Origin: an uncultured Actinomycetes bacterium
GTDB lineage: Bacteria > Actinomycetota > Acidimicrobiia > Spongiisociales > DATADW01
Assembly (NCBI GenBank): GCA_963824995.1
Contig: CAWGRK010000013.1
Coordinates: forward strand, 1 to 64,000
DNA: 64,000 nt
Direction: 5' to 3'
Both the position numbers and the translations under genes were made by a program. Below the pieces are notes generated by a model. That model was not told where the DNA came from, did no database searches, and saw nothing but the letters and a program-made list of their open reading frames with translations. Of this stretch, positions 23,008 to 49,704 are shown one piece after another. Positions within the stretch are counted from its first letter, which is position 1. Each line of letters starts with the position of its first letter.

Positions 23008-23038
23008 ACGGGGCCCCGAGCCGGGTACCGTGCTGTCG

Positions 23039-23776
23039 GTGCCGCCCATCCAGCTAATGGTCACCTGCCTGATCGACGCCTTGGTCCCAGAGGTGGGTGA
23101 GGCCGTGGTCGAGGTACTGGAGCGGCGCGGCTTAGAGGTCGAGTTTCCCGAAGCCCAGACTTGTTGCGGCCAGCCGGCATTCAACGCCGGGCTGTCGGCT
23201 GAGGCGGCACGGATGGCAGCTCACACCGTCAAGGTATTCGATGCCACCGCGGGGCCGATCGTGGCGCCGTCGGGCTCCTGTACCGCCTTCCTCATCCACC
23301 ACGCACCCTCGCTGCTCGCCGGCGAGGAGGAAGCGGATGCGGCGCACCGGGTGGCTGCCCGGGTGCGCGAGCTATCCGTGTTCCTAGACGAGGATCGGGC
23401 TGTTGAAGATCGCAGCGATGCTCCCGAACCGGTTCGGGTTGCCTGGCACCCGTCGTGCCACGGGTTACGCGAGCTGGGGATCACCGATCAGCCCATGCGT
23501 CTACTGGACGGCGTATCTGGTGTCGAGCGGGTGGAAATACCCGGCGCTGATGAGTGCTGCGGCTTCGGAGGGCTTTTCTCCGTGGAGATGCCCGAAGTCT
23601 CCGCAGCGATCCTCAAAGCGAAGCTGGACTCCATCGAGGCGTCGGGGGCTGATGTGGTAGCCGGCGGAGACGTCAGCTGCCTGCTCCACATCGGCGGGGG
23701 GCTGCGGAAGCGGGGGAGCGAGATCCGCGTGTGCCATCTCGCCGAGTTGTTGGCGGGGAGAACCGGCGGGTGGTGA
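23039..23776 (+). CDS. lutA: lactate utilization protein A (CCG domains)
   Basis: QTCCGQPAFNAG, HPSCH, ECCGFGG. Confidence 0.92.
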   Translation: MPPIQLMVTCLIDALVPEVGEAVVEVLERRGLEVEFPEAQTCCGQPAFNAGLSAEAARMAAHTVKVFDATAGPIVAPSGSCTAFLIHHAPSLLAGEEEADAAHRVAARVRELSVFLDEDRAVEDRSDAPEPVRVAWHPSCHGLRELGITDQPMRLLDGVSGVERVEIPGADECCGFGGLFSVEMPEVSAAILKAKLDSIEASGADVVAGGDVSCLLHIGGGLRKRGSEIRVCHLAELLAGRTGGW

Positions 23777-25233: not shown

Positions 25234-25887
25234 GCGCTTCCTAGCCTCGGTAAGGGCAAACGCAGCCATCGGGATACTTCCCACCGCCCCCCAGACCACA
25301 ACCGGGCCACCCAACTTGCCCGACGTCGATCTCGTGGAGACCTTCTGTGCCCGTCTCGGAATCATCGGTGGTCACGCCCACCGGTGCACTGTCGAGGAGA
25401 CGCCCAGTCAGGTCCTCGACCTCCTCGGCGAGTACGAGGCCACCGCACTGATCGCCTGGGACGACCTCCCGGTGTCGGGGCTGCGCGGTCTGCTCGAACG
25501 AGGCAGGAGTCGAAATCCTGACCTCTGTCCCTCCCAGCTGATCGGGCGGACCGTGCCCATCACCTCGGCGGCTACCTCGGACTTGCGGCGGGACTGACCG
25601 GCGCCGATGCCGGGCTCGCCGAGTCCGGGTCGGTGGTGCTCTCTCACGGCCCGGGCCGCCCTCGGCTCGCCTCGCTGGCTCCCGAGGTCCACATCGCCCT
25701 TCTCCCGGCGAGCCGAGTCGTGCGCTCCTTCGCCCACCTCCTGTCCGAAGAGCCGGATCTGATCACCGGGACAGCCAACCTCGTGGTCATCACCGGGCCA
25801 AGTCGCACCGCCGACATCGAGCAACGGCTCACAATCGGGGTGCACGGCCCGAGACATATCCACGTCATAGTGCTCGAGGATGCGTGA
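25223..25887 (+). CDS. lutC: lactate utilization protein C (frameshifted)
   Basis: C-terminal ITGPSRTADIE...GVHGP; N-terminus in another frame. Confidence 0.88.
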
Positions 25888-31580: not shown

Positions 31581-31598
31581 CGCAATTGGGGGGTCCCC

Positions 31599-32561
31599 GT
31601 GGCCACGATCCTCGATGTAGCGGCCCGCGCCGGGGTCGGAGTGGGGACTGTCTCGCGAGTCCTCAACGACTCGCCCACGGTCGACGCGGCGACCCGTCAA
31701 TCGGTACTGGCCGCGATCGAAGATCTCGGTTATCAACCCAGTTCGCTCGCCCGCAACCTGTCGCTAGGTCGGAGCAGTTCCGTCTTTGTGGTGCTTCCGG
31801 ACGTGAACGGGACCACGGTGGGCACTCGGTTGCGCGGCGTCCTCGACTCGCTCTCGCTCACCGGGCTCGATCCCGTGCTGCTCGAGGTGCCCGACGAGGA
31901 CCAGGGCCGTGACCGGTTCCGTCGCATCGCCGAGAGGGGAAGATCCGAGGGGGCGGTGGTCATCGACCTCCGGCCGTCGCCGGCCGAGAACGCCATGCTG
32001 CGACGCGCCGGCGCCAGGTGCGTCTTCGTCGGTAGGGATGTGGAGGGATGGCCGGCGGCCTGGGCGGACGAGGCCAGGGGCACCCGGGTCGCCACCGAGC
32101 ACCTGCTCGGTCTTGGGCACCGCGAGATCGCCTACCTGGGTGAGTCGGGGACTTCCGGAGGCTCCACCCGGCGGCTGCGCGGCTTCACCTCCGCAATGAC
32201 CGCAGCTGGGATGTCGCCGAACCGGCAGGCGCTGATCGACGAAGCAGCGTCCGCCGCTGCCATTCTCGACACGGCACCCACCCCCACCACGGTGGTGGCC
32301 GGATCCGATTGGCTGGGCGTGTCGGTGCTCGCCGAGGCTCGGCGCCGTGGCATGCGTGTTCCCGGGGACCTGTCGGTGGTCGGATTCGACGGATCGGATC
32401 TGGCCCGCCACGTGGGTCTCACCACCGTCGGCCAGCAGTTGGCCGAGAGCGGGCGCTGGGCGGTGGAGAACCTCTTGGCGCTCATCGCCGGCTCGGAGGC
32501 CGTGCCTCGTCACCGGCTGCGGATCGAATTGGTCGAGGGTGACTCGACCGGCCCGATCTGA
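31599..32561 (+). CDS. LacI-family transcriptional regulator
   Basis: [35 protein letters not shown]. Confidence 0.95.
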
Positions 32562-32571
32562 AGCAGTCAAC

Positions 32572-33460
32572 TCACTCTGCGGCTATCGCGGCACGGTGCG
32601 ACCGTCGCTCTGCCAAGGCCGCAACGACGACAGGTCGGAGTCGGACACCCACGACCACGATCACCAGAACCAGGATCTGAGCGAAGACGGTGGGAATGAC
32701 GAACTGCAGCAGCGCCAGCGATCCCCCGAGCACCACCGCCGCCACCACCAAACCTGTCAACGATCCGGGTCCACCAAGGATGGTGACCAGAAAGGCGTTG
32801 ACCATGAAGAGCAACCCGTACTGCGGGTCGAGAGTAGACACCGGTGCCAGGACACCACCGGCGAGACCGGCGAGAGCGGCGCCGATGGTGAACAGCCCGG
32901 CGCGCATCGCCCCGACATCGAGGCCCACGCTCTCCGCAAGGTCAGGGTTGGCGACCACGAGCGCGGGCCTTGAGCCCGAAACGGGTGCGCCCCAGCAGCC
33001 ACCAGGTCCCGATGACGAGGAGAACCGCCAGCAGCGCCAGCACCAGCCGCCAGCGGGGGATGTTGATCCCGAGAATCGTCCACGAGCCTCTCAGCAGGTC
33101 GGGGACGTTCCGCGGGCTCGAGGTGTAGATGAGCTGAACGGCCTGCCGGATGATCACCGCCAACCCGAAGGTGGCGAGCAATGAGTCCAGCGGACGTTGA
33201 TAGAGGAAGCGAAGCACGCCCCGCTCCATCGCCAGCCCGACCAGTCCCGCCACCACCGGCGCCGCCAGCATCCCAACAAACACGCTCCCGGTGAGGCCGG
33301 CCACGGCGTAGGTGGCATACCCACCGATCAACAGGAGTTCGCCGTGGACCAGGTTGACCAATCCGAGCATCCCGAACGTGAAGTGGAGCCCGAGCGAAAT
33401 GAGGACGAATACGGCGATGAGGCTGATGGCGTTGAAGGCGTCGACGAACGGCGAGCTCAC
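32572..33460 (-). CDS. branched-chain amino acid/amide ABC permease (UrtB/LivH-like; frameshift ~32950)
   Basis: GLVNLVHGE, LLATFGL, ILGGPGSL. Confidence 0.88.
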
Positions 33461-34155
33461 AACGTCAACCGCCGGTGCAGCTCGCCGCTGTCGTGCAGCT
33501 CGGCGAGCGGTCCGACAGCAACGATCCTGCCCTCTTCGAGGACGTGGGCGGTGCCTCCCAAAGCGAGGGCGGTGTCGATGTTCTGCTCCACCAGCAGGAC
33601 CGAGCGGCCATCGGTGGCGTCGGCCAGCACCTCGAGCAGTTGCTCGACCACCTGCGGTGCCACCCCCTCGGTGGGCTCGTCCAGCAGCAGCAGCCGGGGG
33701 TCGGTCACCAGCGCTTGGGCTACTCCGAGCATCTTCCGCTCGCCACCCGAGAGCGTCTGGGCTTGTTGATGCCGTCTCTCTGCGAGGATGGGAAACCAGC
33801 CCGCTGCTCGACCCACCACCGCATCGGCGTCGTCACTCCCGGTAGCCAGCGCGAGGTGCTCCTCGACGGTGAGTCCGGAGAAGACGCCGTCATCCTGGGG
33901 AACCCACACCACTCCGGACCGGTAGACCCTGTGCCCGGTCCATCCGGTCATGTTCTCACCCAGGGCACGGACGGTTCCCGCCTCGGGTTTGACCAGGCCC
34001 ATCACCGTCTTGAGCAGGGTGGTCTTGCCTGCCCCGTTGCGTCCGAGGAGGCAGCCCACTTCCCCGGCACCGACGCGCAGTGTCACCTCCCAGAGCACCC
34101 GTGCTGTCCCGTAGCCGGCGCTGACCGAGGAAAGCTCGAGGGCTGGCTCGCTCAC
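33457..34155 (-). CDS. ABC ATP-binding protein (UrtE/LivF-like)
   Basis: GRNGAGKT, LSGGE, LLDEPTEG. Confidence 0.92.
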   Translation of the reverse strand: MSEPALELSSVSAGYGTARVLWEVTLRVGAGEVGCLLGRNGAGKTTLLKTVMGLVKPEAGTVRALGENMTGWTGHRVYRSGVVWVPQDDGVFSGLTVEEHLALATGSDDADAVVGRAAGWFPILAERRHQQAQTLSGGERKMLGVAQALVTDPRLLLLDEPTEGVAPQVVEQLLEVLADATDGRSVLLVEQNIDTALALGGTAHVLEEGRIVAVGPLAELHDSGELHRRLTL

Positions 34156-34883
34156 TCCAACCGACCGAGATAGGCGTCGCGCACCGCCGGGTCCGCCTGC
34201 ACCTCATCGACCCCGCCGGATGCGAGCACCCGGCCGCGGTGGAGCACCGTGACCCGGTCGCTGACCAGGCGGATGAAATCGATGTCGTGTTCAACCACGA
34301 CCATTGCCCGCACCCGGCCCGAGCGCTGCAGGCGTTCGATCAGCTCGGCGGTGCGGTGGCTCTCTCCCAGCGTCATCCCTGAGGTTGGCTCGTCGAGCAG
34401 CAGCAACTTGGGACCGGTGAGCAGGACCATCCCGATCTCGAGCCACTGACGCTCGCCGTGACCCAGTTCGGCGGCCAGCGTGGCCTTCTTACCCCCGAGT
34501 CCGATCAGGTCCAACACCTCGCCGACGAGATCCAGGTTCCCCTTTGCGCCTCGCCGCTTCGATTGGGCGCCGAGCCTCATGTTCTCCTCGACGCTGAGCC
34601 GCTCGAACACGCTGCTCACCTGGAACTTGAGTGCTATCCCCAGTTGGGCGCGCCGCCAACCTGGCACGGTGCCTATCTCGGAGCCGAGGAACTCCACCGA
34701 TCCTGTCTCGGGCTCGACCCGGCCCACCACCACATTGAGCAGGGTGGACTTGCCGGCGCCGTTGGACCCGATGAGACCGCGCACCTCTCCCGGATCGACG
34801 ATGAAGTCCACCCGATCGAGGGCGCGGTAGCCGCCGAGGAGGGTGGATATCCCCCGCAGCGCCAGAACCGGAGTGGCGGTCAC
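34152..34883 (-). CDS. ABC ATP-binding protein (UrtD/LivG-like)
   Basis: GSNGAGKS, LGHGERQWLEIGM, VEHD. Confidence 0.92.
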   Translation of the reverse strand: MTATPVLALRGISTLLGGYRALDRVDFIVDPGEVRGLIGSNGAGKSTLLNVVVGRVEPETGSVEFLGSEIGTVPGWRRAQLGIALKFQVSSVFERLSVEENMRLGAQSKRRGAKGNLDLVGEVLDLIGLGGKKATLAAELGHGERQWLEIGMVLLTGPKLLLLDEPTSGMTLGESHRTAELIERLQRSGRVRAMVVVEHDIDFIRLVSDRVTVLHRGRVLASGGVDEVQADPAVRDAYLGRLE

Positions 34884-35893
34884 CGTCGCCCCTCCGGTCC
34901 GGAGAGGAACCCGAACAACCCGCTCGGGAAGAAAAGGATCACTGCCACCAGCACCACTCCCACCACGACGAGCCACGTACCGAGCAGTGTCCCCGAGAGG
35001 CTGGCGGTGAGCATGTTGAGGAGGACCGCTCCGACCACAGGGCCGATCAAGGTCCCCCGCCCGCCGAGCACGACCCACAACAGCACAAGGGTCGAGGCAT
35101 CCACCCCTACGGCGGCGGGGGAGACGATCCCCTCGTGGACGTAATAGAGCGCCCCACAGAGACCGGCCAGCGACGCCGACGACACGAGGACACTCCGCTT
35201 GACTGCGGGCACCTCGTAACCGAGCAGAGCCACCCGGTCCTCGTTCTCGCGGATGCCGAGGTTGACCAGACCGGTCCTCCCTTTGACGAAGGTACGCAAC
35301 CCCGTGTAGGCAGCGACGAGGAGCGCGGCGGCGAGAAGGTAGAAGGGGAGGCGCCGCTGCAGATCTAGCGGTCCGATCTCGATGCGCACATCGAACAGGA
35401 TCCCGTTCTGCCCGCCGGTCACCGACCCGCCGGCGTTCATGAGCCGCTCCAACAGGAAGGAGACGGCAAGCGTCACCACGGCGAACTCCACCCCGCGGAG
35501 AGCGAACCTGCCCGAGAAGGTGAAGGTGCCGATCGCCCATGCCAGGGCCGCAGCCGCCGCCACCCCGATCGCCACGGCCGGCCACAGGGTCAAAGGGAGT
35601 ATCGAGTACTCCTGGGTGGTGAGGATTGCGACGACGTACGCCGCCCCGCCGAAGAAGGCGGCGTGACCGAAGGTGAACATGCCGCCGTATCCCCAGACCA
35701 TGTCGACCGTCATGGCGAAGACGGCAAGCAGCAAGTACCGGCCGAGACGATCGATGGCGAAACTGTCACCCAGGGCGATCGGCGCCACCACGAGCAGGCC
35801 GAGACCGACCAACTCGACAGCGCGTCGCGACGGCGGCCAGCGCGTCCGCTTGGGCGGTGCGTCCGGCGTCAGGATGGGCTGCTCAGTCGCCAT
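34880..35893 (-). CDS. ABC permease (UrtC/LivM-like)
   Basis: WGYGGMFTFGHAAFFG, IRENEDR, GGRGTLIGPV. Confidence 0.92.
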   Translation of the reverse strand: MATEQPILTPDAPPKRTRWPPSRRAVELVGLGLLVVAPIALGDSFAIDRLGRYLLLAVFAMTVDMVWGYGGMFTFGHAAFFGGAAYVVAILTTQEYSILPLTLWPAVAIGVAAAAALAWAIGTFTFSGRFALRGVEFAVVTLAVSFLLERLMNAGGSVTGGQNGILFDVRIEIGPLDLQRRLPFYLLAAALLVAAYTGLRTFVKGRTGLVNLGIRENEDRVALLGYEVPAVKRSVLVSSASLAGLCGALYYVHEGIVSPAAVGVDASTLVLLWVVLGGRGTLIGPVVGAVLLNMLTASLSGTLLGTWLVVVGVVLVAVILFFPSGLFGFLSGPEGRR

Positions 35894-35911
35894 CGCCGAC
35901 GCCGGGAAGGT

Positions 35912-37072
35912 TCACAATTCGCAGGCCTCCTCCGGGTCCTGGTCAGCAAAGGCGTCTACCAGGACATAGCCGTCGCCCTCCGCTCGGACCAGGTGGATGG
36001 TCTGCTTGAGGTGGTGCGAGGGCATCACCTCGACCGTGCCCGTCGGCCCGTCGAACGTCTGGCCCACCATGGCCTCGGCGACCGCTTCGGCCTCGGTCGT
36101 CCCTGCCTGCTCGACGGCCTGCTTGTAGAGGTAAACGGCATCGTATGCACCCACACCCTCGCCACCCGAAGGGATGGCATCCTCGCCGAACTCGGCCTGG
36201 AAGGCCTCGAGGAACTCCGTGGCCTCCGGTGTGTCGATGGCGGTGAAGTAGGGGAGCGTGGTGTACATCCCCTGAGCGAGATCGATGACACCGGGCAGAT
36301 CGGGGTCTCCGACGAAGATGTTGCCCTGGCCGAGACCCTCGAGCAGCCCGGCATCGTCGAGCGCCTGGAGGGCCGGAGCAAAAGCTGCCGGGTAGAGAGA
36401 GAACATGTAATCGGGCTGCGTGTCCCGCACCGCGCTGACCAATTCGGTGAAATCTTCGGCGACCAGTGGCAGGTAGACCTCGCCCACCACCTCGCCTTGG
36501 TTCTCCTCGATGATCGGCTTGGCGATTTCGAAGCTGCGGCGCGGCCATACGTAGTCGGCCCCGAATAGCAGGACTCGGGGACCGAACTCCTCCTGGAGCA
36601 CCGGGATGAAGGGGCGGATCTGCTGGGCGGGCACGGCGCCGAACGAGAAATAAGTGGGGAGGCACTTCCCGCCCTCGTAGGTCTCGGTGTAGAAGAGGAG
36701 CGCCCCGTTGTCCTCGACGACCGCCTGGGCGGCGGCGTCGTTGGCATCGGACCCGATCGGGCCCATCACCAGATCCACCTCGTCGCTCTCGACGAGCTGG
36801 CGGGCCTTGTCCACCGTGGCAGCCACGTCGGTCTGGATGTCCTCGGTGGTCACCTCCACCTGCCGCCCGTCGATGCCACCAGCATCGTTGATTTCTTGGA
36901 TCGCAAGGCGGGCGCTGCGATCTAGCGAGGTCCCATAGGTGGTGAATGGCCCGGTGAGGTCGGCGATGATCCCGATGGAGATCGGATCTGTCTCCTCGGC
37001 GGCGCCGCCCCCGCAAGCCGCCAACGCCACCGCCACCGCCATGACCAAAGTGACCAACCGCCGTGTTCGCAT
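35912..37072 (-). CDS. ABC substrate-binding lipoprotein (UrtA/AmiC-like amide binder)
   Basis: lipobox LAAC, YEGG, GADYVWPR. Confidence 0.9.
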   Translation of the reverse strand: MRTRRLVTLVMAVAVALAACGGGAAEETDPISIGIIADLTGPFTTYGTSLDRSARLAIQEINDAGGIDGRQVEVTTEDIQTDVAATVDKARQLVESDEVDLVMGPIGSDANDAAAQAVVEDNGALLFYTETYEGGKCLPTYFSFGAVPAQQIRPFIPVLQEEFGPRVLLFGADYVWPRRSFEIAKPIIEENQGEVVGEVYLPLVAEDFTELVSAVRDTQPDYMFSLYPAAFAPALQALDDAGLLEGLGQGNIFVGDPDLPGVIDLAQGMYTTLPYFTAIDTPEATEFLEAFQAEFGEDAIPSGGEGVGAYDAVYLYKQAVEQAGTTEAEAVAEAMVGQTFDGPTGTVEVMPSHHLKQTIHLVRAEGDGYVLVDAFADQDPEEACEL

Positions 37073-37133
37073 ACCACCGCCTCCTTCTCGTTTCGGCACC
37101 GATGCTCGTCGAACCGTCCTCGATCCTTGGTGA

Positions 37134-38626
37134 TCACCTGTCCCCGAACGCGGGATCCACCGCAGCACGACGCCCGGTCTCGCCGTACCAGGTGGTCACC
37201 ACGACCTTCTTGTCGGTGTAGAAGTCCACTGCGTCGTTGGCGCGTCCGCGGTGGGAGCCGAAGAGGGATGTCTTGCGCCCACCAACCGGGTAAAAGGCGA
37301 TCGGTGCCGGGGTCCCCACGTTGATCCCAACCTGGCCGACCTGGGCCCGCTGCCGGAACTCACGGGCGACCCCGCCGTGCTCGGTGTACACCACCGCCGT
37401 GTGGCCGTATGTGCTGGCATTGACGATCTCCAGCGCGTCCTCGAGGCCCTGTACCCGGCGGAGGCAACGCACCGGGCCGAACAACTCGCGGTCGAACACG
37501 TCCATCCCCGGTTCGGCGAGAAGCATGGTCGGGCCGAGCCAGAACCCACCGGGATATCTCTCGACGGTGGCTCCTCTCCCGTCGAGGACCAGATCAGCTC
37601 CCTGTTCTACCGCGGTCTCGACCGATTCCTCCAGCATTCGGAGGGCCCGCTCCGAGATCACCGGGCCCATCGTCGTCGAGGGGTCCATCCCGTGACCCAG
37701 CCGAAGGCCACGCACCTCGTCCAGCAGGCGGGGCACCACATCGTCCCAGACCTCGTCGTAGACCAACAGGTTGGAGCCTGCGAAGCAGCGCTGCGAGGCG
37801 TTGCCCAGCATCGAGGAGACGATGTTGGGGAGGCATCGCTCGACCACCGCGCTGTTGGTGACGACGAGGTGGTTCTTCGAGCCTCCTTGGCTCTGGCACC
37901 GCTTCCCGGCGGCGGTGGTCATCGTGTATACCCGGCGGGCGATCTCGGATGAGCCCACAAACGAGATGCCGGCGACCAGGGGGTGAGACGCCAGCGCGCT
38001 GACCACATCTGCGCCACCCAGTACGAGGTTCACCACGCCGGCAGGGAAACCCGCCTCGCCCGCAAGCTCGGCCAGCCTCACTGCGGTCAGCGGGCAGTGC
38101 TCCGAGGGCTTGATCACCACCGTGTTGCCACAGGCGACCGCCCAGGTGAAGTAGAGCGGGATCATCGCCGGGAAGTTGAAGGGAGCGACGATGCCGAAGA
38201 CACCGAGCGGCTCCCGGATGTATTCGGTGTCCACCCCGGTGCCGATCTCTTCCGAGGCGGACCCCTTGATCAGCTCGGGTATGGCGCAGGCGTGCTCGAT
38301 GTACTGCAGGCCCCGAACCAACTCGCCTTTGGCCTCGGCCAGCGTCTTGCCGTTCTCGGCAACGGTGAGCTCGGAGAGCTCGTCGATCGCGCCGCTCACC
38401 AACTCGCGGTAGCGGAACAATGCCGCCGCCCGCTGCGGCACCGGAGTCATCCTCCATTCCCAGAAGGAGTCGTTCGCAGCGGCAACCACCGCGTCCACAT
38501 CGGCGGCGGTGGAGCCCGCTGACGTGCGATGACCTCGCCCGACGCCGGGTCGATGACATCGACATCACCGCCGCCTGGCTCGAACCATTCGCCGCCGGCG
38601 AGGTTGCGGAGGGAGCGGACGCTCAA
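37134..38626 (-). CDS. CoA-acylating (methyl)malonate-semialdehyde dehydrogenase family (frameshift ~38520)
   Basis: PFNFPAMIP, KPSE, FVGSS, GGSKNH, QRC, ELFGP. Confidence 0.88.
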
Positions 38627-39800
38627 TGCCCACCTCCAGCGGACATCCAGGGGATCGAGATGGTGCGAACCGGTGGCGGGGTATTGCGGGACTTGACGAA
38701 GCGGACGACGCCATCGGTCACCGATGCGTAGACCGCCGGCGTGTCTCCGATAGCCAATGACCCGAGGGCATCCCCAGCCTGCGACCCGAGCGGGGCGTCG
38801 GCGATGATCAGGTCGGCCTCCATGCCCTCGGCGACGACTCCCCGGTTCAGTCCGTGGACCCGAGCGGTGTTCCCGGTGGCAAAGGACACCGCCACCTCCG
38901 GTGGGACCCCACCGAAGGCCGCCGCCCAGGAGATGGTGCGGAGCACTCCCAGGGGCACCACACCGGTCCCCGCAGGGGAGTCGGTCCCGACGATCACCCG
39001 GTCGAGAGCGCCCCGCTGGGCGGCGAGAGCGACCACCTCGCCGCATGCCTTGACGTTGCCGTTGTGGACGACCTCGATGGCGGCATCGGACTCGTCGATG
39101 ATCCGGGCGACGTCTTCCAGCGGAGGCGCAGTGGGACCACCGTTGACGTGCGCTGCCACGTCGGGCCGGACGGCAAGGACGAAATCGGCGCCGATGACAC
39201 CACTCCCCGGGATCGAGGCCCCGCCGGTGTGGACGACGACCTTCATTCCGTGAGTTGAGCCCAGCGGACCATGGGCTCGGCCTCCGCCGGGTCCTTCACA
39301 CCCGAGATTCCGATCTCGCCGACGAGACGCACCCCGGCAGCCGCCATTTCTGCGAAGTCCGTCTCGGTGAGCCCGGCTTCGAGCAGCACTGCCCCGGCGA
39401 TCACCTTGGCCCCGCCCGGACGCAGCGACTGAAATGATCGGGCGGCGAGTATGGCGAGCGCCTTGACCCCGGCCGGGTCGGTGGGCCGGCCCGGGGTGTG
39501 GGGCTCGCCTGCGGAGATCATGGTGGTGACCCCGCCGTGTGCATAGCTCTCGAGGAAGTCGAGGATCCGCTGCCTCGGGGAGAAGTCACCTATGACCGGG
39601 TGGATATGCGAGTCGATCAACCCGGGCATGAGTGTGGCGCCGCCGCAGTCGATCACCTTGTCGATGTCGCCCGGGTCGAGGCCACGGCCCACCTCGGCGA
39701 TCAGGCCATCGCGGACCACGACGCTGTCGGCGTCGGCGATCGGAGTGTTTACGTCGCCACTGACCACGGTGGAAGCGTTGACTATGGCGAGGTCGGCCAT
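38623..39800 (-). CDS. enamidase-like amidohydrolase (frameshift ~39250)
   Basis: VSGD...PGLIDSHIH..GDFSPRQ..HGGVTTMISAG.PH.PGRP, HTGGASIPGS, HVNGGPTA, KSRNTPP; colinear with Eubacterium barkeri enamidase as recalled. Confidence 0.85.
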
Positions 39801-39823
39801 CACCGGCCGCCGTTCGCCGGTCG

Positions 39824-40403
39824 TCACCTGAGCCCGTCCTCGCCGACCGCCTCTGAGACGGTCAGCCCTCCGACACGGGGCAGTGGACGGCCACCGTCGG
39901 TCACCGCCACAGCGATGACCATCTCGTCGTCGGCGGGAGCATCCACGATCCGCAACTCCGCAGCGTCGAAATGGCTGCGGACGAATGCCGCGTCCTTGTA
40001 GTGGAGCGGGACATCGATGGGGGTCCCCGGTCCGCCTCGCTTCTTCGCCGACGGGATGATCGCCTTGCCGCCACCACTGGCATCGCGCAACGGGTTGCCG
40101 AACTTGGGGTGGAGCATCGCCGCCACGTGCTCCAACTCGCCGGCCATCCCCACGATCCCGGCCTTGCCGTACGAGTTCACCGGACGCCCCCGAGTTGGGC
40201 ATACCGCCCTCTCGGCGAGGAGCGTGGAGAGGGCGACGCTGGCGTCGGCCAGGTCATCGAGAGACTCCTCGTAACGACCGGCGTGTGGGTTGGTCACCAC
40301 CGCGGCGGCTATGACCCGGGTGACCGGCGGTTCGACCGGTCGTCCCATCTCGGTCCGGGTCTCGTCCACGCAGACCACCAACCTGCGGATGCTTCAGTTC
40401 CAT
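39824..40403 (-). CDS. 'amino acid synthesis' family protein (DUF1185)
   Basis: AAVVTNPHAG, SYGKAGIVG.GELEH, PLHYK...RSHFD, DAPADDE; indel near the start. Confidence 0.85.
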
Positions 40404-40416
40404 CGGTGCCGCCTCC

Positions 40417-41448
40417 CTAAGTCCCAGCGAGGAAGATCATCGATCGCCCTCAGCCAGTGTCGAGCATGGGCTCGACTATGTGGGGGTTATCAGGTCGAGT
40501 TGGCCCGGATCGTTGACCAGGGGCGTCAGGATCAGGTACTGAAGCCCGGCCGCGGCCAATTCGGCGATGGCGCCCATCATGTCATCGATCGGTCCCGGTG
40601 AGGTAGGAGGCCTGCAGGTCCTCGACAGTTCGATGGTGTCCCATCACGTCGAGGAAACGGGGGATCTGGGTACTCGAGTGCCTCCTCCCGGCTGCCCGTC
40701 TCTGTCACATGGAGGAACTGGGTGGCGGCGAATATCAGATCGTCGGGCTCGCGGCCCTGCTCCTCCAGGTGGCTGCGGACCACCTGCCAGTCGCGCTTCA
40801 CGTCGCCAGGGTCCGATCCAGAGGAGCGGGCCATCCAGCCCGACTGCTTGTGCGATCCGGTCGAGGACGCCCTTCGCCATGAACGGCTTGTCGGGGGTGT
40901 CGGGAGCATGGGTCAGCGAGCCGCCAGCCACCCAGAGCGGCGGAGGCTCGGGAATCCGGGGGTGGATGGTCACCCCCTCCACCTCCCAGTAGCGCCCGTT
41001 GAAGGTCACGTCCTCCTCGGTGAGCAGCAGCCGGACCAGGTGGATGGCCTCGTCGGTCCGCCTCCCACGCTCGCGCAAGCGAGATGCCCACAGCATCGAA
41101 TTCGGCCGGGTCCCACCCCACCGCGACTCCGAACCGATAACCGACCCCCCGACAGGAGGTGGATCGAGGCGATCTCCTTGGCCAGGATCACCGGGTGGCG
41201 CAATGGAAGGACCAGCGCAGCGGTCCCAAGTCCGACCCGCGAGGTGACCCCGGCGGCCGCCGAGAGGACGACGAGCGAGTCGAGCCAGGAGACGCCGTAG
41301 ACACCCTTCGATACCAGCAGGTGATCGATCACCCAGATGTCCTCGTAGGGCCCTTCCTCGACCTTCCTGCAGTAGTCGAGCAAACCTTCCGCCTGGTCAT
41401 AACCCATGCCGGCCACGCATATGACGGAAGTCGCAATCCGAATCTCAT
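40417..41448 (-). CDS. LLM-class (luciferase-like) flavin/F420-dependent oxidoreductase (several frameshifts)
   Basis: MRFGLRLP start, WVIDH, GLGTAALVLPLRHPVILAKEIASI..LSGGRL, RGRRTDE, PPLWVAGGS. Confidence 0.85.
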
Positions 41449-41629
41449 CGCCTTGGTGCCCCACCCAGCTCTGTGTCTCGGGATCCGGTCGCGGGAATCT
41501 AGTGATGGCTACCCGTCGATGCGGACGCGGCACACGGGGCCGATCGGGTGCCAAGATTCGGTGATGGACGTTCCGCGCCGGGACCTGGGTACAGGGTGAT
41601 GGCGGTCCACCTTGGAGGCCGTGCCGACG

Positions 41630-43981
41630 ATGAGCACATGGACGGGCGCACCGATCGCCCGGCTCGAGGACGAGCACTTTCTCACCGGTGATACCCGCTT
41701 CGTCGACGACATCTCCCGTCCTGGTCTGCTCCACGTCGCAATCGTCAGGTCGCCAGGTCGCCGCCGCCGTCTTCGCTGAGGTCGAGACCTCGGAAGCCAG
41801 CAAGGCCCCAGGGGTCTTCGCGGTGCTGACCGCCGCAGACCTCGCTCACACCAATCCGCTCCGACCGGTGCTCCACCGTCCCCAGTTCGTCCCCACCGAG
41901 ATGCCGCTGCTGGCCACGGACCGGGTCAGGTATGTCGGCGAGCCCCTGGCCTTGGTGCTGGCGAGAACTCGTGGCGCCGCCGAGGACGCAGCCGACCTGG
42001 TCTGGGTGGAGTACGACGAGACACCGGCCGTCTCGTCGATCGACGATGCCCTGGCCGACGGTGCTGAGCCGGTTCATGCTGACGCTCCCGGCAACGTGCT
42101 GCTCGACCTGCCCATGTTCCAGGACGCGGCGCTCGATGACATCCTCGCCGGTGCGGCGGTCGTGGTCGACGGTATCTTCGACTCCGGCCGGGTCACCGCG
42201 GCGCCCATGGAGGGTCGCGGTGTGGTTGCGGAATGGGATCGGCGCGACGGGCGGCTGTCGTTGCACGCCTCCACCCAGGTACCTCACATCGTGCGCACCG
42301 CCATCGCCGACACGCTGGGGCTGGCCGAGCACCTGGTGAGGGTGATCGCCCCCGACGTCGGCGGGGGCTTCGGGCAGAAGTGCGCCGTGGGCCGCGAGGA
42401 GCTGGCGGTAGCTGCTGCGGCCGCTGCTCACCCGCCGGCCGCTCAAGTGGGTCGAGGACCGCCGAGAGAACCTGCAGTCCGCCTTCCAGGGGCACGAGCA
42501 GCGTCATAGCGTCCGTGCGGGTTTCGACGCCGATGGAACTCTTCTCGGGCTCGCCACCGACATCTGGTGCGACGTCGGCGCTTACCACTGCTACCCGTTC
42601 ACCGGGGGCGTGGAGCCGCTCATGGCCGCCACAGAGATGCCCGGGCCATACCGGCTCGAGCACTACAGCGCCCACACCAGGGCAATCGCCACCAACAAGC
42701 CCCCGATGGCGCCCTATCGGGGGGTGTCACGTCCCCAGATCACCCTGGCGATGGAGAGGGTGATGGACAAGGCGGCGGCCCGTCTCGGGATGGACCCGGC
42801 TGAGATACGGCGCCGCAACCTGATCAAGCGCGACGAGTTCCCCTATCGGGGCGCAACCGGGATCCTCTACGACGAGGGGAGCTACCTCGAGGCTCTCGAG
42901 GACGTGATGACGGCGGCCGGTTACGAGTCGCTGAGGGAACGGCGCAACGAGCGAGGCTCGTCGGACGACGGGCAGCCTCTGTCGGGTGTCGGGTTGTCGG
43001 TGTTCTCCGAGCGCACCGCATACGGGACCCCGGTCTTCGGGCAACGGCTCATGGGCATCACGCCGGGGTACGAAACCACCCACGTCCGGATCGACCCGTC
43101 GGGGGGCGCCACCGTCCTCGCCGGCACCGTCTCGCACGGTCAGGGGCACGCAACGACCCTCGCCCAGATGGTCGCCGACAGGCTTGCGCTGACACCGGCC
43201 GACGTGCGCGTCGTCCAGGGGGACACCGATGCCGTTCCCTACGGCTGGGGCACGTTTGCCAGCAGGTCGGTCGTGTTGTCCGGTGACGCCGCCACCGAGG
43301 CTGCTGACCGGCTTGTGTCGAGAGGCTGACGCGGATCGCGGCCCACCTGCTCGAGGCGGCACCGGAGGACGTGGTGTTCGAGGGTGGGCGGTTCGGTGTC
43401 CGTGGGGTGCCCGAGTCGGGGATGTCGCTGCCCGACCTGGCCCGATCGGTCTACCACGCACCTCATCGGCTTCCGCCCGACGAGCGTGCCGAGTTGGAGG
43501 AGTGGGGCTCCTCCGACCCGCCGGGGACATTCTCCAACGCCGCCCACCTCGCCGTGGTCGAGATCGACCCAGCCACGTGGGAGGTGACTGATCGTCCGCT
43601 ATCTGGTGACTGAGGACTGCGGGGTGATGATCAACCCATTGATCGTCGATGGCCAGATCACCGGCGGGGTGGCACAGGGAATCGGTGCCGCGCTCTACGA
43701 GCAGTCTGGTGTTCGACCCGGCCGGTCAACCGCTGGTGACCGGTTTCATGGACTACCTGGTGCCCACCGCGGCAGAGGTGCCGTCGATCGAGATCCACCA
43801 TCTGGTCACGCCCTCCACGGTGAGCGCCACCGGTGCCAAGGGGATGGGGGAGGGGGGCACGATCGGAGCACCGGCGGCCATCCTCAACGCGGTCAACGAC
43901 GCCCTTTCCCCTCTCGGCATCGAGATCGATCGGATCCCCGTCACCCCCGACGAGATCGCCCGAGCTGTCGCCGCTCGGTGA
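41630..43981 (+). CDS. xanthine dehydrogenase-family molybdopterin-binding large subunit (several frameshifts)
   Basis: [52 protein letters not shown]. Confidence 0.9.
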
Positions 43982-43989
43982 TCGGGGCA

Positions 43990-44225
43990 GTGATCCCGCC
44001 CGACGGCGGGGAGACGGAAAACAATCCGCCGTAGGCGGCGGGGGAGGGGGAACGGTGCACTCCCATGGGTGCGATGACCGCGTGTCGAGCACCGGTGGGA
44101 ACTCGGGGTGCCCCCCTACCCGCTGCCCCGCAGCGGGTCCCTTCCCCCCTCCGGGGGGACGGAAACAAACTGGCAGCGGATGTTTCCAACGGCTTCCTCC
44201 CCGGCGGGGGAAGGGACGGTTCACT
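43990..44225. repeat. cluster of REP-like palindromes
   Basis: multiple GC hairpins; core cctacccgctgc..gcgggt..cggggggacggaaa (44115-44165) recurs at 60684-60732. Confidence 0.65.
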
Positions 44226-44254
44226 CCCAAAGACGCAACAGCCCGGGGATTTGG

Positions 44255-44289
44255 CTTCCGTCTTCCGCCTTCCGTCTTCCGTCTTCCCG
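44255..44289. repeat. heptamer array (CTTCCGT-like)x~5
   Basis: immediately downstream of amidase stop. Confidence 0.85.
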
Positions 44290-44291
44290 TT

Positions 44292-45633
44292 CTAGACAGG
44301 CGCGAACATCGGTGGGTCGAGTCGCTCCCAGAGGACCTGGCCGGCGCCGAGGAGGCGGTGGTCATCGAAGTGACGGGCGGTGAGTTGCACGCCGATAGGA
44401 AGTCCGTTCTCTAGTCCGGCTGGGACCGCCAGGGCGGGCAGTCCGGTGAGATTGGCGAAGGACGTGTTGCGGCACAGGGCATGGTCGAACTGGTCGGATG
44501 CCTTTCCCATCCACAGCATCTCGTCCCCGATCCTGGGTGCCGGGGCGGGCATGCCGGGGAGAAGGAGCAGATCCCGGCGGTGTAGCGCCTCGAGAAAGTT
44601 GGTGCGATAGGTGTCGGCACGTCGGCGATTCTCGAGGTAGTCGGCAGCAGCCGCTGGAGAACCCGGTGCCGACCCGTGGCCCGACCTCGCCGGTGTATTC
44701 GGACATGCGTCTCTCGTACCAAGGACGGTGGTAGAGCGCCGCCTCGGCGTCGATGATGTCGAAGTCGAGGTCTACGCAGCCCTCGAAGTCGCTGATTTCG
44801 ATCTCGTCCAACACGGCTCCGGCATCGGTGAGATGCTCGGAGGCTGTCTTCACCGCTTCGGCCACTCCGGCGGAGAGGGGTCCAGGATTGGTCAGCACTC
44901 CGACCCGCCATCCGCTGACATCGCCGGGGATCAGGGGTGCGGTGCCAGGCGCCCCCGCCATGATCGCCTCGAGCAACAGCGCACAGTCACGAGGGCTGCG
45001 CGCCATGGGCCCGACGTTGTCGAGACTCCAGGACAAAGGGACCACGCCGACGGTCGGTACAAGAGTTGCGGTGGGCTTGAGCCCGACGGTGCCGCAGAGA
45101 CCGGAGGGGATCCTGATCGACCCCGCGGTGTCGGTCCCGATCGCGGCCGGGGTCAAGCCGGCGGCGAGTGCAGCGGCGCTTCCCCCCGAAGACCCGCCAG
45201 GGATGTGTGATTTGTTCCACGGGTTGGTGGTTGGTGGGGTGGAGGAACCGAAGGCGAATTCGTGGGTTCGGGCCTTGCCGATGAGCACGCACCCCGCATG
45301 GCGGAGCGCGCTCCACACCGGGGCGTCCTCGAATGGCGTCCGCCCGGCGAACAGGGCGCTCCCTGCTTCGGTGACGATGCCGGCGGTGTCGATCAGGTCC
45401 TTGACCGCTACCGGAATACCGAGCAAGGGTCTGTCGTCCCCTTGTCCCAGGGCCCCTTCGGCCTCGATTGCCTGGGCGAAGGCGGTCTCGGCGGTGACGG
45501 TGGCAAATGCGTCGACCTCATTCCCGATCGACTCGATCCTCGCCAGCAGCGCTTCGACCACCTCGACAGGAGAGAACTCACGCTGGCGATACCCGTCAGC
45601 GAGTTCAGCGATTCCTAGTTGGTGAAGCTCCAT
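44292..45633 (-). CDS. amidase signature family protein (frameshifted)
   Basis: GIPVAVKD, GGSSGGS, GTDTAGSIRIPS, NLTGLPALAVP. Confidence 0.92.
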
Positions 45634-45649
45634 CGATCGACGATCCGAT

Positions 45650-46415: not shown

Positions 46416-46488
46416 GGGCGGAGTTTACGGGCAACACCGTGCCGGGCCGCGTCCGTGAGCAGTCGCCCCCCGGCCGTACACTCGGCAG

Positions 46489-48266
46489 GTGACCTTCCGC
46501 CGCGACGACATCGAGCGGGTGCGGACCGCAATCAACCTGGTGGAACTCGTCCAGACGGTGACCACGGTGCGGCGGAGCGGCAGGAGCTACATGGCGATCT
46601 GTCCCTTCCATCAGGAGAAGACGCCGTCGCTGTCGCTCGACCCGGCCAAGGCGGTGTGGTACTGCCACGGCTGCCACCAGGGTGGGGATGTCTTCAAGTT
46701 CCTCATGGACACCAAGGGCCTCGACTTCAACGAGGCCGATCGAGGAACTCGCTTCCCAGGCTGGGATCACGCTGGAGCGGGACCCGGGCGAGACGACGAC
46801 GTCGGAGCGATCGCGACCGGCTGGTCGAGGCGATGACCGCCGCGATCGACTTCTATCACCGGCGGCTGCTCGATGGCTCCGACGCTGGAAAGGCCCGGGC
46901 TTACCTGCGGGGACGCGGATACGACGCCGATACCGTCGAGCACTATCGGATCGGCTGGTCGCCGGCGGCGCAGGGCGTCCGACTGGGACGTGCTTGCCCG
47001 CGACCTCGGCGGGCGTGGGAGTCTCGGATCGAGCGATGCTCGACACGGGGCTGGCGGCCCGGGGTAGGAACGGCCGCCTACGCGACTGGTTCCACGGCCG
47101 TGTGCTCTTCCCCATCCACGATCTGCGGGGCGACCCGGTCGGATTCGGTGGGCGGCTGCTCGAGGGCGAGGGGCCGAAGTACCTCAACACGCCCGAGACC
47201 AAGCTCTACCAGAAGGCGCGACTCCTCTACGGGCTCGATCGAGCCAAGGCTCCGATCACCCGTGTCGGTCGGTCGGTCGTGGTCGAGGGGTACACCGATG
47301 TGATCGCCTGCCATCGCAACGGCATTCCGGAGGCGGTAGCCGACGTGTGGGACCGCGTTGGGCGAGGAGCACATCGACCTGCTTCGACGATTCGCCGAGC
47401 GGGTGGTACTCGCCTTCGACGCCGACCAAGCGGGCGCCGGTGCCGCATTACGCGGCGGGCAGTTGCGGTCGCCCTTCGAGATGGGGCTCGATCTCCGTGT
47501 GGCGATGATGCCTGCCGGCAACGATCCGGCCGATCTCGCCCAGGACGGCCGGCTGGCCGAGCTACAGCAGGCCGTGGACAGTGCGGTCCCGTTGGTCCGG
47601 TTCCGCATCGATCGGATGCTGGAGAGCTTCGACCTCGACGAGCCCGAGGGCCGGGCGCGGGCGATAAAGGAAGTGGCGCCACTGCTCGCCGAGCAGGGCG
47701 ACCTCATCGCACGCCAGGAGTACATCCGCCACGTCTCCCGCCGCACCGGCACCGACCAGGCGATGGTGGAGAGAGCGGTGTTCGACGCAGCAGGTGGCTT
47801 AAGACGAGCCGCGGTGCCTTCGGCAGCGATACCACGCCGCAGCGGTCAGGCGCGGGCCGAGCGGGAGTTGCTCCGTTTGCTGGTTGCCAACCCACAGCCG
47901 ATGGCGACGATCGAAGTCTCTGCCGACTGGTTCACCTCGGATGAGCACCTCGCCGCACTCGCCCGCCTCGCCCCCGCCATGTCCGGTGGGGCCGATCCGG
48001 GCCATCCGCTCGACATGGGCTCGCTTCTCGGGGACGAGGACAGCACTGTGGCCGAGCTGCTCCGTGAGCTCGCCGTGGACGACCGTCCGCTAGACGATCC
48101 CGTCGAGGTGGTCGCCAGTCTCCGCTCCTGGGCGATGGAGCGGCGCATCGCCGATCTGCGCCGTCGGCTGGAGCGCGTCGAGTCGGTGGACGGGGAGACC
48201 CATTCCCGGCTGCTCGCCGAGTTGATAGCGTTGGAGCAGTCACGGAGGGCGTTGCGTGGGGGCTGA
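46489..48266 (+). CDS. dnaG: DNA primase (several frameshifts)
   Basis: CPFHQEKTPS zinc finger, FGGR, KYLNTPET, VEGYTDVI, FDADQAG. Confidence 0.96.
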
Positions 48267-48267
48267 A

Positions 48268-49401
48268 GTGACCGAGACAGACGAGGTCGTAGCCGATCTG
48301 ACGAGACGGGGGACTCAGAGGGGATTCCTAACCGCGTCCGAGGTCCTCCAGGCGCTCGAAGACGCCCAGCGCACCCGCCGAGTCCTTCGAGACCGTTTTC
48401 GAGACGACTCAGAGCGGCGGACATCGCGATCGCCGAAGAAGGACCCAGATGCGCTCGCCACCGGCATCACCGCCGAGGAACTGGTTTCGGTGTCCGACCC
48501 CGTCCGGATGTACCTCCAGGAGATCGGTCAGGGTGCCACTGCTCACGCCGCAGCAGGAGGTCGAGTTGGCGCTCCAGGTGGAGGCGGGGGTCAAGGCCGC
48601 GGACAAGCTCGCCGCCGGTCAGTTCTCCACCGAGGACCGGGTCATCCTGCAACGGACGGCGCGCCATCGGCCAGCAGGCCAAGGACCGCCTGGTGGAGGC
48701 AAACCTGCGACTCGTGGTTTCCATCGCCAAGAAGTACGTAGGCCGCGGGATGCCGCTGCTCGACCTGATCCAGGAGGGCAACCTCGGACTGATGCGAGCG
48801 GTCGAGAAGTTCGACTACCGCAAGGGCTTCAAGTTCTCCACTTACGCCACGTGGTGGATCCGACAGGCGGTCACCCGGGCTCTCGCCGACCAGGCGCGGA
48901 CCATCCGGGTGCCGGTTCACATGGTGGAGACGATCAACAAGTTGGCACAGGTCCAGCGCCAACTTGCTCCAAGAGCTGGGCCGCGAGCCCAACATCGCCG
49001 AGATCGCCGGCGAGATGGAGGTGGATCCCGGGCGGGTCACCGAGCTACGCCAGATCGCCCAGGACCCGGTGTCGCTGGAGACGCCGCTCGGCGAGGACGA
49101 CGAGTCGACACTGGGCGACTTCGTGGAGGATTCCGAGGCCGAGGTGCCGGTCGAGGCCGCTTCGTTCCGGCTACTCCAGGAGTACGTGGCCCACGCACTC
49201 GAGGATCTCAACGAGCGGGAACGTCAGGTGATCGTGATGAGGTTCGGGCTCGCCGACGGCCGGGTCCGCACCCTCGAGGAGGTCGGGGCTCACTTCAACG
49301 TCACTCGAGAGCGGGTTCGTCAACTGGAGACCAAGGCGCTGGCCAAGCTGCGGCACCCGGCACGGTCACGCCGGCTCCAGGGCTACCTGCGCGAGGGCTG
49401 A
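48268..49401 (+). CDS. rpoD: primary sigma factor (several frameshifts)
   Basis: [48 protein letters not shown]; follows dnaG. Confidence 0.95.
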
Positions 49402-49413
49402 GGACTCCCGGGC

Positions 49414-49704
49414 TCAGCTGCTCGAGGCGCCCACCCCGTTGGTAGGAACGGCCACCACGACCTTGTCGTCGGACGAGCTCACGGTTCTCTTGATCGTGGA
49501 CGAGGCCGTCTCCATGCCGCGTCCGGCAAGGTCGCGCAATTGTCCGGTGAGCTTGCTGCCGGCCTGGACGACTGCCTGTCCCGGTTCCGACTCGAGGGCA
49601 TTGCGCCAAGTGCGGGCGATCTGCTCGTACCGCTCCCGCCCAGCGGCTGCTCCCACTATGTAGCCGGCACCGAACCCGATGATCAAACCTGCTCTCAGTC
49701 GCAC
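49414..49704 (-). CDS. small actinobacterial membrane-anchored protein
   Basis: [20 protein letters not shown] motif; AGGAGG RBS. Confidence 0.75.

Follow-up and report, generated by a model that had tools for sequence, protein, structure and literature searches.

The stretch of DNA studied here comprises positions 1 to 64,000 of contig CAWGRK010000013.1 from an uncultured bacterium of the Acidimicrobiia; this 64-kb stretch (66% GC), hereafter called the window, is the only part of the genome that is visible. It carries a cluster of twelve genes around an enamidase gene. Four of them are encoded one after the other on the reverse strand: a luciferase-like (LLM) oxidoreductase of the TIGR03619 type (~40453-41508; Bac_luciferase fragments in at least three frames, mapped with the ortholog of the related locus L004), a DUF1185/AA_synth protein (39824-40393; PF06684, 221.7 bits against a cut-off of 27), the enamidase (38623-39800; matching the solved structure 2VUN, with one frame change at ~39253) and a CoA-acylating aldehyde dehydrogenase of the methylmalonate semialdehyde dehydrogenase (MMSDH) family (37134-38564). 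Together with the five genes of an ABC transporter they form a co-oriented run of nine genes with short gaps between them; a Mo-hydroxylase large subunit, an amidase-signature enzyme and a LacI-family regulator complete the cluster. Every gene named in a preliminary description of this DNA was found again at its place by Pfam, NCBIfam and coordinates. We give an about even chance to the reading that the cluster encodes an Acidimicrobiia variant of the reductive pathway of nicotinate/nicotinamide catabolism, which proceeds through 6-oxo-1,4,5,6-tetrahydronicotinate (THON).

For the gene calls, 138 six-frame open reading frames (ORFs) of at least 110 aa between 27 and 51 kb were compared with Pfam and 19 relevant pieces with NCBIfam, and the pieces of split genes were placed by mapping with intact orthologs from relatives. 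The genes of the relatives were called with a simple codon-log-odds caller, some of whose calls are wrong (in L004 it missed the N-terminal piece of the Mo subunit and part of the binding protein). A comparison with 2VUN, proposed as a check in the preliminary description, places the amidohydrolase within the enamidase clade by a full-length match (E 1e-57 and 1e-61 for its two pieces): the N-terminal piece aligns with residues 4-184 of 2VUN_A (E 1.5e-57) and the C-terminal piece with residues 184-383 (E 1.4e-61), the next-best solved amidohydrolase being a hydantoinase (E 6e-08). The HxH motif is aligned with that of 2VUN ('dshihp' versus 'DTHVHV'), and H65, H67, H191, H218 and D274 are invariant in 15 relatives; the later His and Asp residues we take to be metal ligands, as in the superfamily. 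A database search with the C-terminal piece yields more than 5,700 matching proteins at E<=1e-10, many of them named enamidase by JGI, and the closest named enamidases come from metagenome-assembled genomes (MAGs) of Acidimicrobiia and Actinomycetota. Judged by its sequence, the protein is a member of the enamidase family, with 63-72% identity to the enamidases encoded beside nicotinate dehydrogenase and 6-hydroxynicotinate reductase (Hnr).

The arrangement is not due to chance, since four loci from related MAGs (L001-L004) are collinear with the window from 28.6 to 49.7 kb, and the run LLM-DUF1185-enamidase-MMSDH-transporter is kept in two further loci (L005 and L007), whose enamidases share 67-71% identity with that of the window. 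The association of LLM, DUF1185, enamidase and MMSDH that had been noted in this DNA is thus conserved in relatives.

Reductase genes at enamidase loci

Chemically, the difficult step in reductive nicotinate catabolism is the reduction of the pyridone ring, for which the ferredoxin-dependent Hnr, an iron-sulfur flavoprotein, is to our knowledge the sole enzyme type. We scanned genome contigs with an enamidase alignment and obtained 590 encoding stretches, from which the best 80 were taken with flanks of up to 10 kb; with the window they make up a survey set of 81 loci, to which the locus of Eubacterium barkeri does not belong. All loci were scored by tblastn with the proteins of the cluster and with those of the commonest architecture, other genes being assigned through Pfam/NCBIfam, and a tree of the enamidases (78 rows) was calculated by a quick IQ-TREE run. 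The commonest architecture has the order three-domain Mo hydroxylase, Hnr, UPF0280/ApbE-like protein, DUF1185, enamidase and small cupin. Its Mo hydroxylase (FAD + 2Fe-2S + Moco) matches 3HRD_A (E 1e-82) and 3HRD_B (E 5e-64), and in 31/81 loci an orthologous enamidase lies beside a Mo hydroxylase that matches the chains of the E. barkeri nicotinate dehydrogenase. The Hnr of the survey is a 473-aa protein with no Pfam domain, named 6-hydroxynicotinate reductase by both NCBI and JGI.

Hnr is present in 31 of the 81 loci, always within ~6 kb of the enamidase, and the LLM of the window (55-100% identity) in 15, the window included; the two occur together in none, and 35 loci contain neither. UPF0280 was found in 33 loci, i.e. 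in all 31 with Hnr and in two edge-truncated ones, and in 0/15 LLM loci. Distant LLM paralogs (25-37% identity), present in four loci of which three have Hnr, were not counted as LLM. A tblastn search of the window with the Hnr of L016 gave no match even at E<=1, and none was obtained at E<=1e-8 in the other 14 LLM loci; UPF0280, an FAD/FeS subunit and a CoA-transferase likewise had no tblastn match in the window even at E<=1. Together with the Pfam scans this bears out the earlier statement that the window contains neither Hnr nor a gene of the 2-hydroxymethylglutarate branch. The survey of neighborhoods for LLM and MMSDH without Hnr, also suggested earlier, revealed MMSDH in 10 of the 15 LLM loci and Hnr in none.

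The LLM adjoins DUF1185 and the enamidase in three gene orders and in two phyla, with enamidase-LLM-DUF1185 as the order in L062 (Chloroflexia). At seven LLM loci (L008, L026, L056 and four more) it lies beside a Mo hydroxylase 70% identical to the one of the Hnr loci; the three-component nicotinate dehydrogenase present in L008, L026 and L056 is absent from the window. PncA-like nicotinamidases are found in four of these sister LLM loci (63-68% identity to the probe; the protein of L008 reaches 136.6 bits against a cut-off of 174), and L026 includes a nicotinate phosphoribosyltransferase (NAPRTase). An alignment of the LLM proteins (12 rows) has a mean column identity of 76%, which points to constraint on the protein.

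The intact LLM ortholog of L004 (L004:8308-9360) passes the TIGR03619 cut-off (177.9 versus 166.9), and four of its five best NCBIfam matches are F420 families; the frameshifted pieces of the window reach only 72.1 and 42.3. No close solved relative exists, the closest being 2B81 (E 3e-14), and an AF2 model (pLDDT 75) shows the LLM TIM-barrel fold. Luciferase-like F420H2 hydride transferases are described as adding hydride to the ring of picrate and as reducing dehydroalanine, an enamide C=C (PMC8498797, text available in part); in the available part of PMC8518648 we found no sequence rule that separates F420 from FMN LLMs. As far as sequence comparison can tell, the cofactor of the LLM is probably F420H2, and the simplest reading of the distribution is that the LLM would do the job of Hnr, whose ApbE-like partner would have been lost with it. 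The bound flavin of Hnr is covalent, and UPF0280/ApbE-like is plausibly needed for it.

We also note that UPF0280/ApbE-like (L016:8596-9423, L019:8572-9423), currently named 'hypothetical protein', matches NF003322 with 383 bits against a cut-off of 290, which makes it a candidate flavin-transfer or maturation factor for Hnr.

A possible route to glutaryl-CoA

The route proposed in the following builds on gene identities, synteny and presence or absence of genes, from which we infer what every enzyme acts on, which cofactor the LLM uses and what DUF1185, the amidase and the Mo subunit do. A pyridine amide or acid would be taken up by the Urt-like ABC transporter and, if it is an amide, hydrolyzed by the amidase; the Mo hydroxylase, with FeS and FAD partners encoded elsewhere, would then hydroxylate next to the ring nitrogen. 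The LLM might act as a hydride transferase in place of Hnr, probably with F420H2, and convert 6-hydroxynicotinate to THON by adding a hydride and a proton across C4=C5 of the 2-pyridone. Ring opening of THON by the enamidase would yield 2-formylglutarate and ammonia, DUF1185 would act with the enamidase or on its aldehyde/enamine product, and the MMSDH would turn 2-formylglutarate, CoA and NAD+ into glutaryl-CoA and CO2. A stronger, joint form of this proposal holds that the LLM is a second, F420H2-dependent type of 6-hydroxynicotinate reductase, unrelated to Hnr, DUF1185 the missing universal component of the THON pathway, and the MMSDH a dedicated subfamily leading to glutaryl-CoA; we put it forward tentatively, at rather less than an even chance. 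As parts of it, the LLM would have displaced Hnr and its ApbE-like partner in several Acidimicrobiia and in at least one Chloroflexia lineage, and DUF1185 would be a decarboxylase, a deaminase or a dehydrogenase helper acting on the enamine or 2-formyl-dicarboxylate.

The MMSDH can be aligned over its whole length with solved MMSDHs (E 4e-111 to 1e-94) and narrowly passes TIGR01722 (458.6 versus a cut-off of 448.5). It has the Arg-Cys motif and a second Arg, and where ELGGK would supply the general-base Glu it reads GGSKNH ('qRCfa'/'eRCma', 'iRePLGV'/'mRqPLGV' and 'qGGsKNH'/'lGGaKNH' in the comparison with 9Q0D); catalytic roles of the Arg-Cys pair, of the second Arg as binding the substrate carboxylate, and of the missing Glu are assumed here. 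In the window the gene lies 62 bp after the enamidase, and in all 22 loci that have it (10 of the 15 LLM loci, 5 Hnr loci and 7 with neither reductase) it starts 62-763 bp after the enamidase end. As 2-formylglutarate is a 2-substituted malonate semialdehyde, its oxidative decarboxylation with CoA would give glutaryl-CoA; the position after the enamidase suggests a larger 2-substituted substrate than usual for the family, and 2-formylglutarate is the one we would expect the enzyme to convert. In L025 and L033, which have no MMSDH, a family-III CoA-transferase is present whose best match is succinate--glutarate CoA-transferase (404 bits against a cut-off of 750); this fits a glutarate/glutaryl-CoA end point as in Azorhizobium.

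DUF1185 is the core partner of the enamidase, being present in 73/81 loci; of the eight loci without it, six have at most 3.3 kb of upstream sequence, and only L052 and L054 have full flanks. The protein matches PDB 2QTP (SPO0826; E 5.6e-62) and 3BYQ (E 4e-29), and its fold is Bacillus chorismate-mutase-like. A predicted complex of enamidase and DUF1185 scored 0.00 against a mark of 0.32, which gives no answer either way. In the trigonelline pathway, an aldehyde reportedly also arises by enamide hydrolysis, via a 2-formyl-dicarboxylate. The succinate semialdehyde dehydrogenase of that pathway is stimulated by TgnF, a homolog of DUF1185 (PMC7913881, text available in part), and the available portion of the DUF1185 structure paper (PMC2954203) mentions only ABC-transporter genes as neighbors. 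Because of the parallel with TgnF and with trigonelline chemistry, it is plausible that DUF1185 acts on the product of the enamidase.

The transporter follows the MMSDH on the reverse strand and consists of a UrtA/amide-type periplasmic binding protein (35912-37168; Peripla_BP_6, 255.8 bits), a UrtC-like permease (34880-35893; BPD_transp_2), a UrtD-like ATPase (34158-34895; ABC_tran and BCA_ABC_TP_C), a UrtE-like ATPase (33460-34140; ABC_tran) and a UrtB-like permease (32611-33460; BPD_transp_2 in two pieces, with a frame change near 32945-32976). The same transporter (at least 55% identity) follows the MMSDH or the enamidase in 19/81 loci, and its UrtA-like protein is a probable nicotinate or nicotinamide binding protein. 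An assignment as the urea transporter UrtABCDE was rejected, the system being related only: all five components stay below the urea equivalog cut-offs (UrtA-like on TIGR03407, 215.4 versus 492.75; UrtB-like on TIGR03409, 138.1 and 77.8 for the two pieces versus 250.3; UrtC-like on TIGR03408, 181.2 versus 296.2; UrtD-like on TIGR03411, 245.1 versus 304.1; UrtE-like on TIGR03410, 193.8 versus 285.8).

The Mo-hydroxylase large subunit (41663-43948, forward strand; Ald_Xan_dh_C, MoCoBD_1 and MoCoBD_2 in at least four pieces) is divergent from the operon that starts with the LLM. It had been listed as part of the pathway; the gene is indeed present, but as an orphan and of another type than nicotinate dehydrogenase, namely that of quinoline 2-oxidoreductase/CoxL (QorL; the L007 ortholog matches 1T3Q_B with E 1.8e-182). 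Small Mo-hydroxylase subunits are absent from the window and from the L001-L005 loci; in L007 the Mo subunit has FAD and FeS subunits of its own as neighbors, together with an isochorismatase and the amidase. The amidase-signature enzyme of the window (44301-45636, reverse strand; PF01425 in two pieces, with a frame change near 44640-44656) shares 48-53% identity with the intact amidase of L007, and orthologs are found in L001-L005 and L007. It is a candidate for the hydrolysis of nicotinamide or a related amide.

The LacI-family regulator (31587-32561, forward strand; Pfam LacI and Peripla_BP_3) is convergent with the operon, facing its transporter genes tail to tail. With its L002 ortholog it shares 75% identity over 327 aa and, in the comparison of the 81 loci, it is kept only in L001-L004.

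Weighing of alternative explanations

Several observations weigh against this interpretation. If the LLM reduces the ring, as the preliminary description had proposed, the two reductases should exclude each other, and the 31 Hnr loci, 15 LLM loci and 0 loci with both are as expected; however, Hnr versus LLM needs just 3 state changes on the enamidase tree, with 2-3 independent contrasts (sign test p=0.5). Since the exclusivity is phylogenetically clumped, the 0-of-46 overlap does not represent 46 independent observations. Moreover, nine loci of the neither type have at least 8 kb on both sides of the enamidase (L041, L044, L052, L054, L061, L063, L064, L068 and L072), and L017 has 9.7 kb upstream without either reductase. 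An unlinked reductase is thus common in the survey, and an hnr gene may lie elsewhere in this genome, beyond the visible 64 kb. A Foldseek search with the LLM model (pLDDT 75) returned FMN monooxygenases and F420 enzymes alike (TM 0.60-0.69), and general domain scans of the window detected no F420 biosynthesis gene. The Mo subunit of the window is ~30% identical to the nicotinate dehydrogenase of other loci, and neither an FeS nor an FAD partner for it was found in the window (tblastn, E<=1). MMSDH is a common enzyme of valine catabolism, and the genes that come after it in L049 are a 3-hydroxyisobutyrate-dehydrogenase-like one and one for a thiolase. Finally, if the frameshifts seen in 6/12 genes were real, the cluster would be dead.

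The LLM could instead be a two-component FMNH2 oxygenase that acts on the pyridine ring or an intermediate, the cluster serving another N-heterocycle and DUF1185 and the dehydrogenase working like TgnF/TgnE; we regard this as unlikely. FMNH2 oxygenases of this kind have precedents in TgnB on trigonelline, PyrA on pyridine and RutA on uracil, and the LLM fold matches SfnG, SsuD and RutA as well as F420 enzymes. The quinoline-oxidoreductase-like Mo subunit, which is not of the nicotinate dehydrogenase type, would agree with such a role, as would the enamidase homologs in other contexts (L052, L068 and L072) and the combination of DUF1185 with an aldehyde dehydrogenase that parallels TgnF/TgnE (PMC7913881, in its available part). 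On the other hand, no flavin reductase domain was detected among the 138 ORFs of the cluster region, from which a shorter fragment could escape, and the intact LLM ortholog passes the cut-off of an F420-LLM family. In addition, the enamidase is orthologous to those beside nicotinate dehydrogenase and Hnr, sister LLM loci keep authentic nicotinate dehydrogenase, PncA and NAPRTase, and a role as oxygenase leaves the exclusivity towards Hnr unexplained.

To a second scenario, in which Hnr is encoded elsewhere in the genome and the LLM acts at another step, e.g. by reducing or oxidizing 2-formylglutarate, glutarate semialdehyde or a side product with F420, we assign the same low probability. It draws on the nine loci with full flanks and on L017, all without a linked reductase, on the restriction to 64 kb of visible genome, and on the fact that F420 LLMs include alcohol/aldehyde-type dehydrogenases (Adf, Fgd and hydroxymycolate dehydrogenase). 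Yet an enzyme of a downstream step should, by expectation, be found with Hnr now and then, and 0/31 Hnr loci have this LLM within 10 kb, just as 0/15 LLM loci have Hnr or UPF0280; the close spacing of Hnr and enamidase wherever Hnr is found also argues against a distant hnr gene.

Slightly less probable still is the possibility that the MMSDH is a bystander, perhaps along with the amidase and the Mo subunit, and that other enzymes decarboxylate and oxidize 2-formylglutarate to glutarate as in Azorhizobium. Indeed, 59/81 loci, most Hnr loci included, contain no MMSDH, L025 and L033 have the succinate--glutarate CoA-transferase-like gene instead, and L049 has an mmsA/mmsB-like pair. A bystander would hardly be expected, though, at 62-763 bp after the enamidase in each of the 22 loci, which include LLM, Hnr and neither types and several gene orders, and 2-formylglutarate, judged by its chemistry, would fall within the substrate class of the family.

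That the cluster is a decaying pseudogene array in this organism appears very improbable: 6/12 genes are split by frame changes, but the essential dnaG and sigA show the same kind of splitting, the indels are spread over ~29-50 kb, the LLM region retains 91-98% nucleotide identity to intact orthologs, and an intact, 99%-identical enamidase exists. The frameshifts recorded in the preliminary description are present, with six of the twelve genes spread over at least two frames each, yet they are not specific to the cluster, as dnaG and the sigA-like sigma factor gene just downstream (46459-49442) are each split over three frames and are intact in L004. In comparison with three related MAG loci, 162-184 of 170-191 alignment gaps between ~28 and 50 kb are not multiples of three, and the LLM region contains 32 indel events in 2 kb relative to L004 in spite of its high identity to this locus. 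The intact enamidase P0001 (392 aa, from the protein database) is 98.9% and 99.5% identical to the two pieces of the window. Because dnaG and sigA are split as well and this intact enamidase exists, the frameshifts are most likely errors of assembly or sequencing rather than signs of pseudogenes. Some gene splits also occur in the relatives, which are long-read-style MAGs themselves. Sequence quality seems to fall along the window: leuS, lepA, dnaJ, era and others (1-27 kb) are whole ORFs, and beyond 50 kb we find short ORFs only, with few Pfam matches. As a separate observation, positions 41000-43000, from the LLM to the Mo subunit, show 96-98% nucleotide identity to L004 and L001 with flanks at 85-90%, which may reflect a recent exchange between lineages or unusually strong conservation.

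Relation to known pathways and further loci

The nicotinate fermentation of E. barkeri follows the logic of hydroxylation, reduction to THON and hydrolytic ring opening to 2-formylglutarate (PMC7356986 and PMC9304392, in the text available). The proposed pathway of the window shares this logic as well as an enamidase homologous over its full length to 2VUN; the window differs by having neither Hnr nor UPF0280, by showing no genes of the 2-hydroxymethylglutarate branch, and by a Mo enzyme of another subtype, without small subunits. In an aerobe, Azorhizobium caulinodans, the reductive route leads via THON to glutarate/glutaryl-CoA, the available text of PMC3511419 citing it as 'via glutarate'; in that text, genes of the cluster are given for the first three steps only. 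Published proteobacterial clusters combine Hnr with an ABC transporter and with two proteins that are conserved but unknown (PMC3511419, PMC9304392, available parts). Our survey loci from Burkholderiaceae and Acidobacteriaceae have DUF1185 and UPF0280 as additional conserved genes. For its lower steps, the Azorhizobium route reportedly relies on decarboxylation, oxidation to glutarate and CoA transfer (Kitts 1992), whereas the MMSDH that follows the enamidase in the window would reach glutaryl-CoA in one step. The window and the Azorhizobium/Bradyrhizobiaceae systems thus would have the reductive route and its glutarate/glutaryl-CoA end in common, but clusters of the Azorhizobium type carry an Hnr homolog where the window has the LLM.

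The claim of a novel pathway architecture in the preliminary description must accordingly be narrowed. The route from THON to glutaryl-CoA itself is known from Azorhizobium (PMC3511419 and PMC9304392, as far as available), and it is the exchange of Hnr for an LLM and the shortcut through an MMSDH that appear undescribed: in the literature searched we found neither an LLM in place of Hnr, nor an MMSDH-type enzyme after an enamidase, nor a stated link of DUF1185 and UPF0280 to the THON pathway.

With the F420H2 hydride transferases (the picrate reductase Fht/Npd, the dehydroalanine reductase LxmJ and Mer) the LLM shares the TIM-barrel fold and, through its intact ortholog, a match to TIGR03619; 6-hydroxynicotinate would be a new substrate for this group, and the best solved match, 2B81, is a distant one (E 3e-14). 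The Arg-Cys motif and the missing general-base Glu are common to the MMSDH of the window and to MmsA/IolA enzymes (1T90, 9Q0D). Details of the tgn cluster of Acinetobacter baylyi ADP1 are said to be given by Perchat et al. 2018. This cluster, too, is devoted to a pyridine carboxylate and combines a flavin-dependent ring-attacking enzyme, an enamide hydrolase, an aldehyde dehydrogenase and the DUF1185 protein TgnF (PMC7913881, and PMC13236597 for TgnA/TgnB, both available in part); it opens the ring oxidatively, without Mo hydroxylase or enamidase, whereas the window has both of these and no flavin reductase was seen there.

If the LLM does reduce the pyridone ring, an oxygen-tolerant, single-subunit hydride transferase unrelated to Hnr would have taken over its step, a clear case of non-orthologous displacement. 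This would provide a physiological substrate for the large and mostly uncharacterized actinobacterial LLM/F420 family, help to explain how abundant uncultured Acidimicrobiia could use vitamin B3 as a source of carbon and nitrogen, and offer a simple biocatalyst for the partial reduction of pyridones. The survey also leads to testable roles for DUF1185 and UPF0280, families with solved structures or curated models but no known function, and to candidate genes for the lower part of the Azorhizobium route, which the available text describes in biochemical terms.

Several loci of the survey deviate from both the LLM and the Hnr type. L041, L044, L045 and others have a sub-architecture of DUF1185, enamidase, MMSDH and transporter, with the dehydrogenase downstream and no reductase in range. 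L025 and L033 belong to a sub-clade with neither Hnr nor LLM in range, in which ankyrin-repeat, MST/DinB and succinate--glutarate CoA-transferase-like genes occur as well. Both contain in the cluster an ORF of 550-594 aa without Pfam/NCBIfam match (L025:5625-7409 and L033:6413-8158, both on the reverse strand), and a further such ORF of 313 aa is found in L025 (1609-2547, reverse strand); the long ORF is possibly a third solution for the reduction step, or unrelated to it.

In the cultured actinomycete Nocardioides soli DSM 105498 (L052, 9267-16179), an enamidase homolog with 55% identity lies behind an IclR gene and is accompanied by an ABC transporter of the NMT1 type as well as two distant LLM genes, and no DUF1185, Hnr or Mo hydroxylase is found nearby. 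A more distant enamidase clade (45-46% identity) is represented by L068 (7508-13042) and L072 (5786-15533), which keep the DUF1185-enamidase pair and join to it an FAD_binding_3 aromatic hydroxylase and an NMT1 binding protein; L072 additionally contains a CoxSML-type Mo hydroxylase, a CoA-transferase and a citrate-synthase-like gene. These two clusters probably encode a pathway for a different heterocycle.

A cupin of ~130 aa follows the enamidase in 15 loci (e.g. L019:11169-11564) and is absent from the window. Its best NCBIfam match is (R)-mandelonitrile lyase (107 bits against a cut-off of 140), and the loci that have it are of the Hnr type, save for L023 (truncated, with neither reductase seen), most of them without MMSDH. 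In many loci DUF1185 or the enamidase is adjoined by a second isochorismatase-family hydrolase, which is RutB/biuret-amidohydrolase-like and not the PncA-like one (e.g. L008:8099-8728, L041:8721-9332 and L044:8661-9329); the window has none and contains the amidase-signature enzyme instead. Outside the cluster, at 23012-25884 of the window, lactate-utilization genes (LutA-like CCG, LutB with 4Fe-4S and LutC/LUD, the LutC part being called in two pieces) are located upstream of recO, uppS and glyS.

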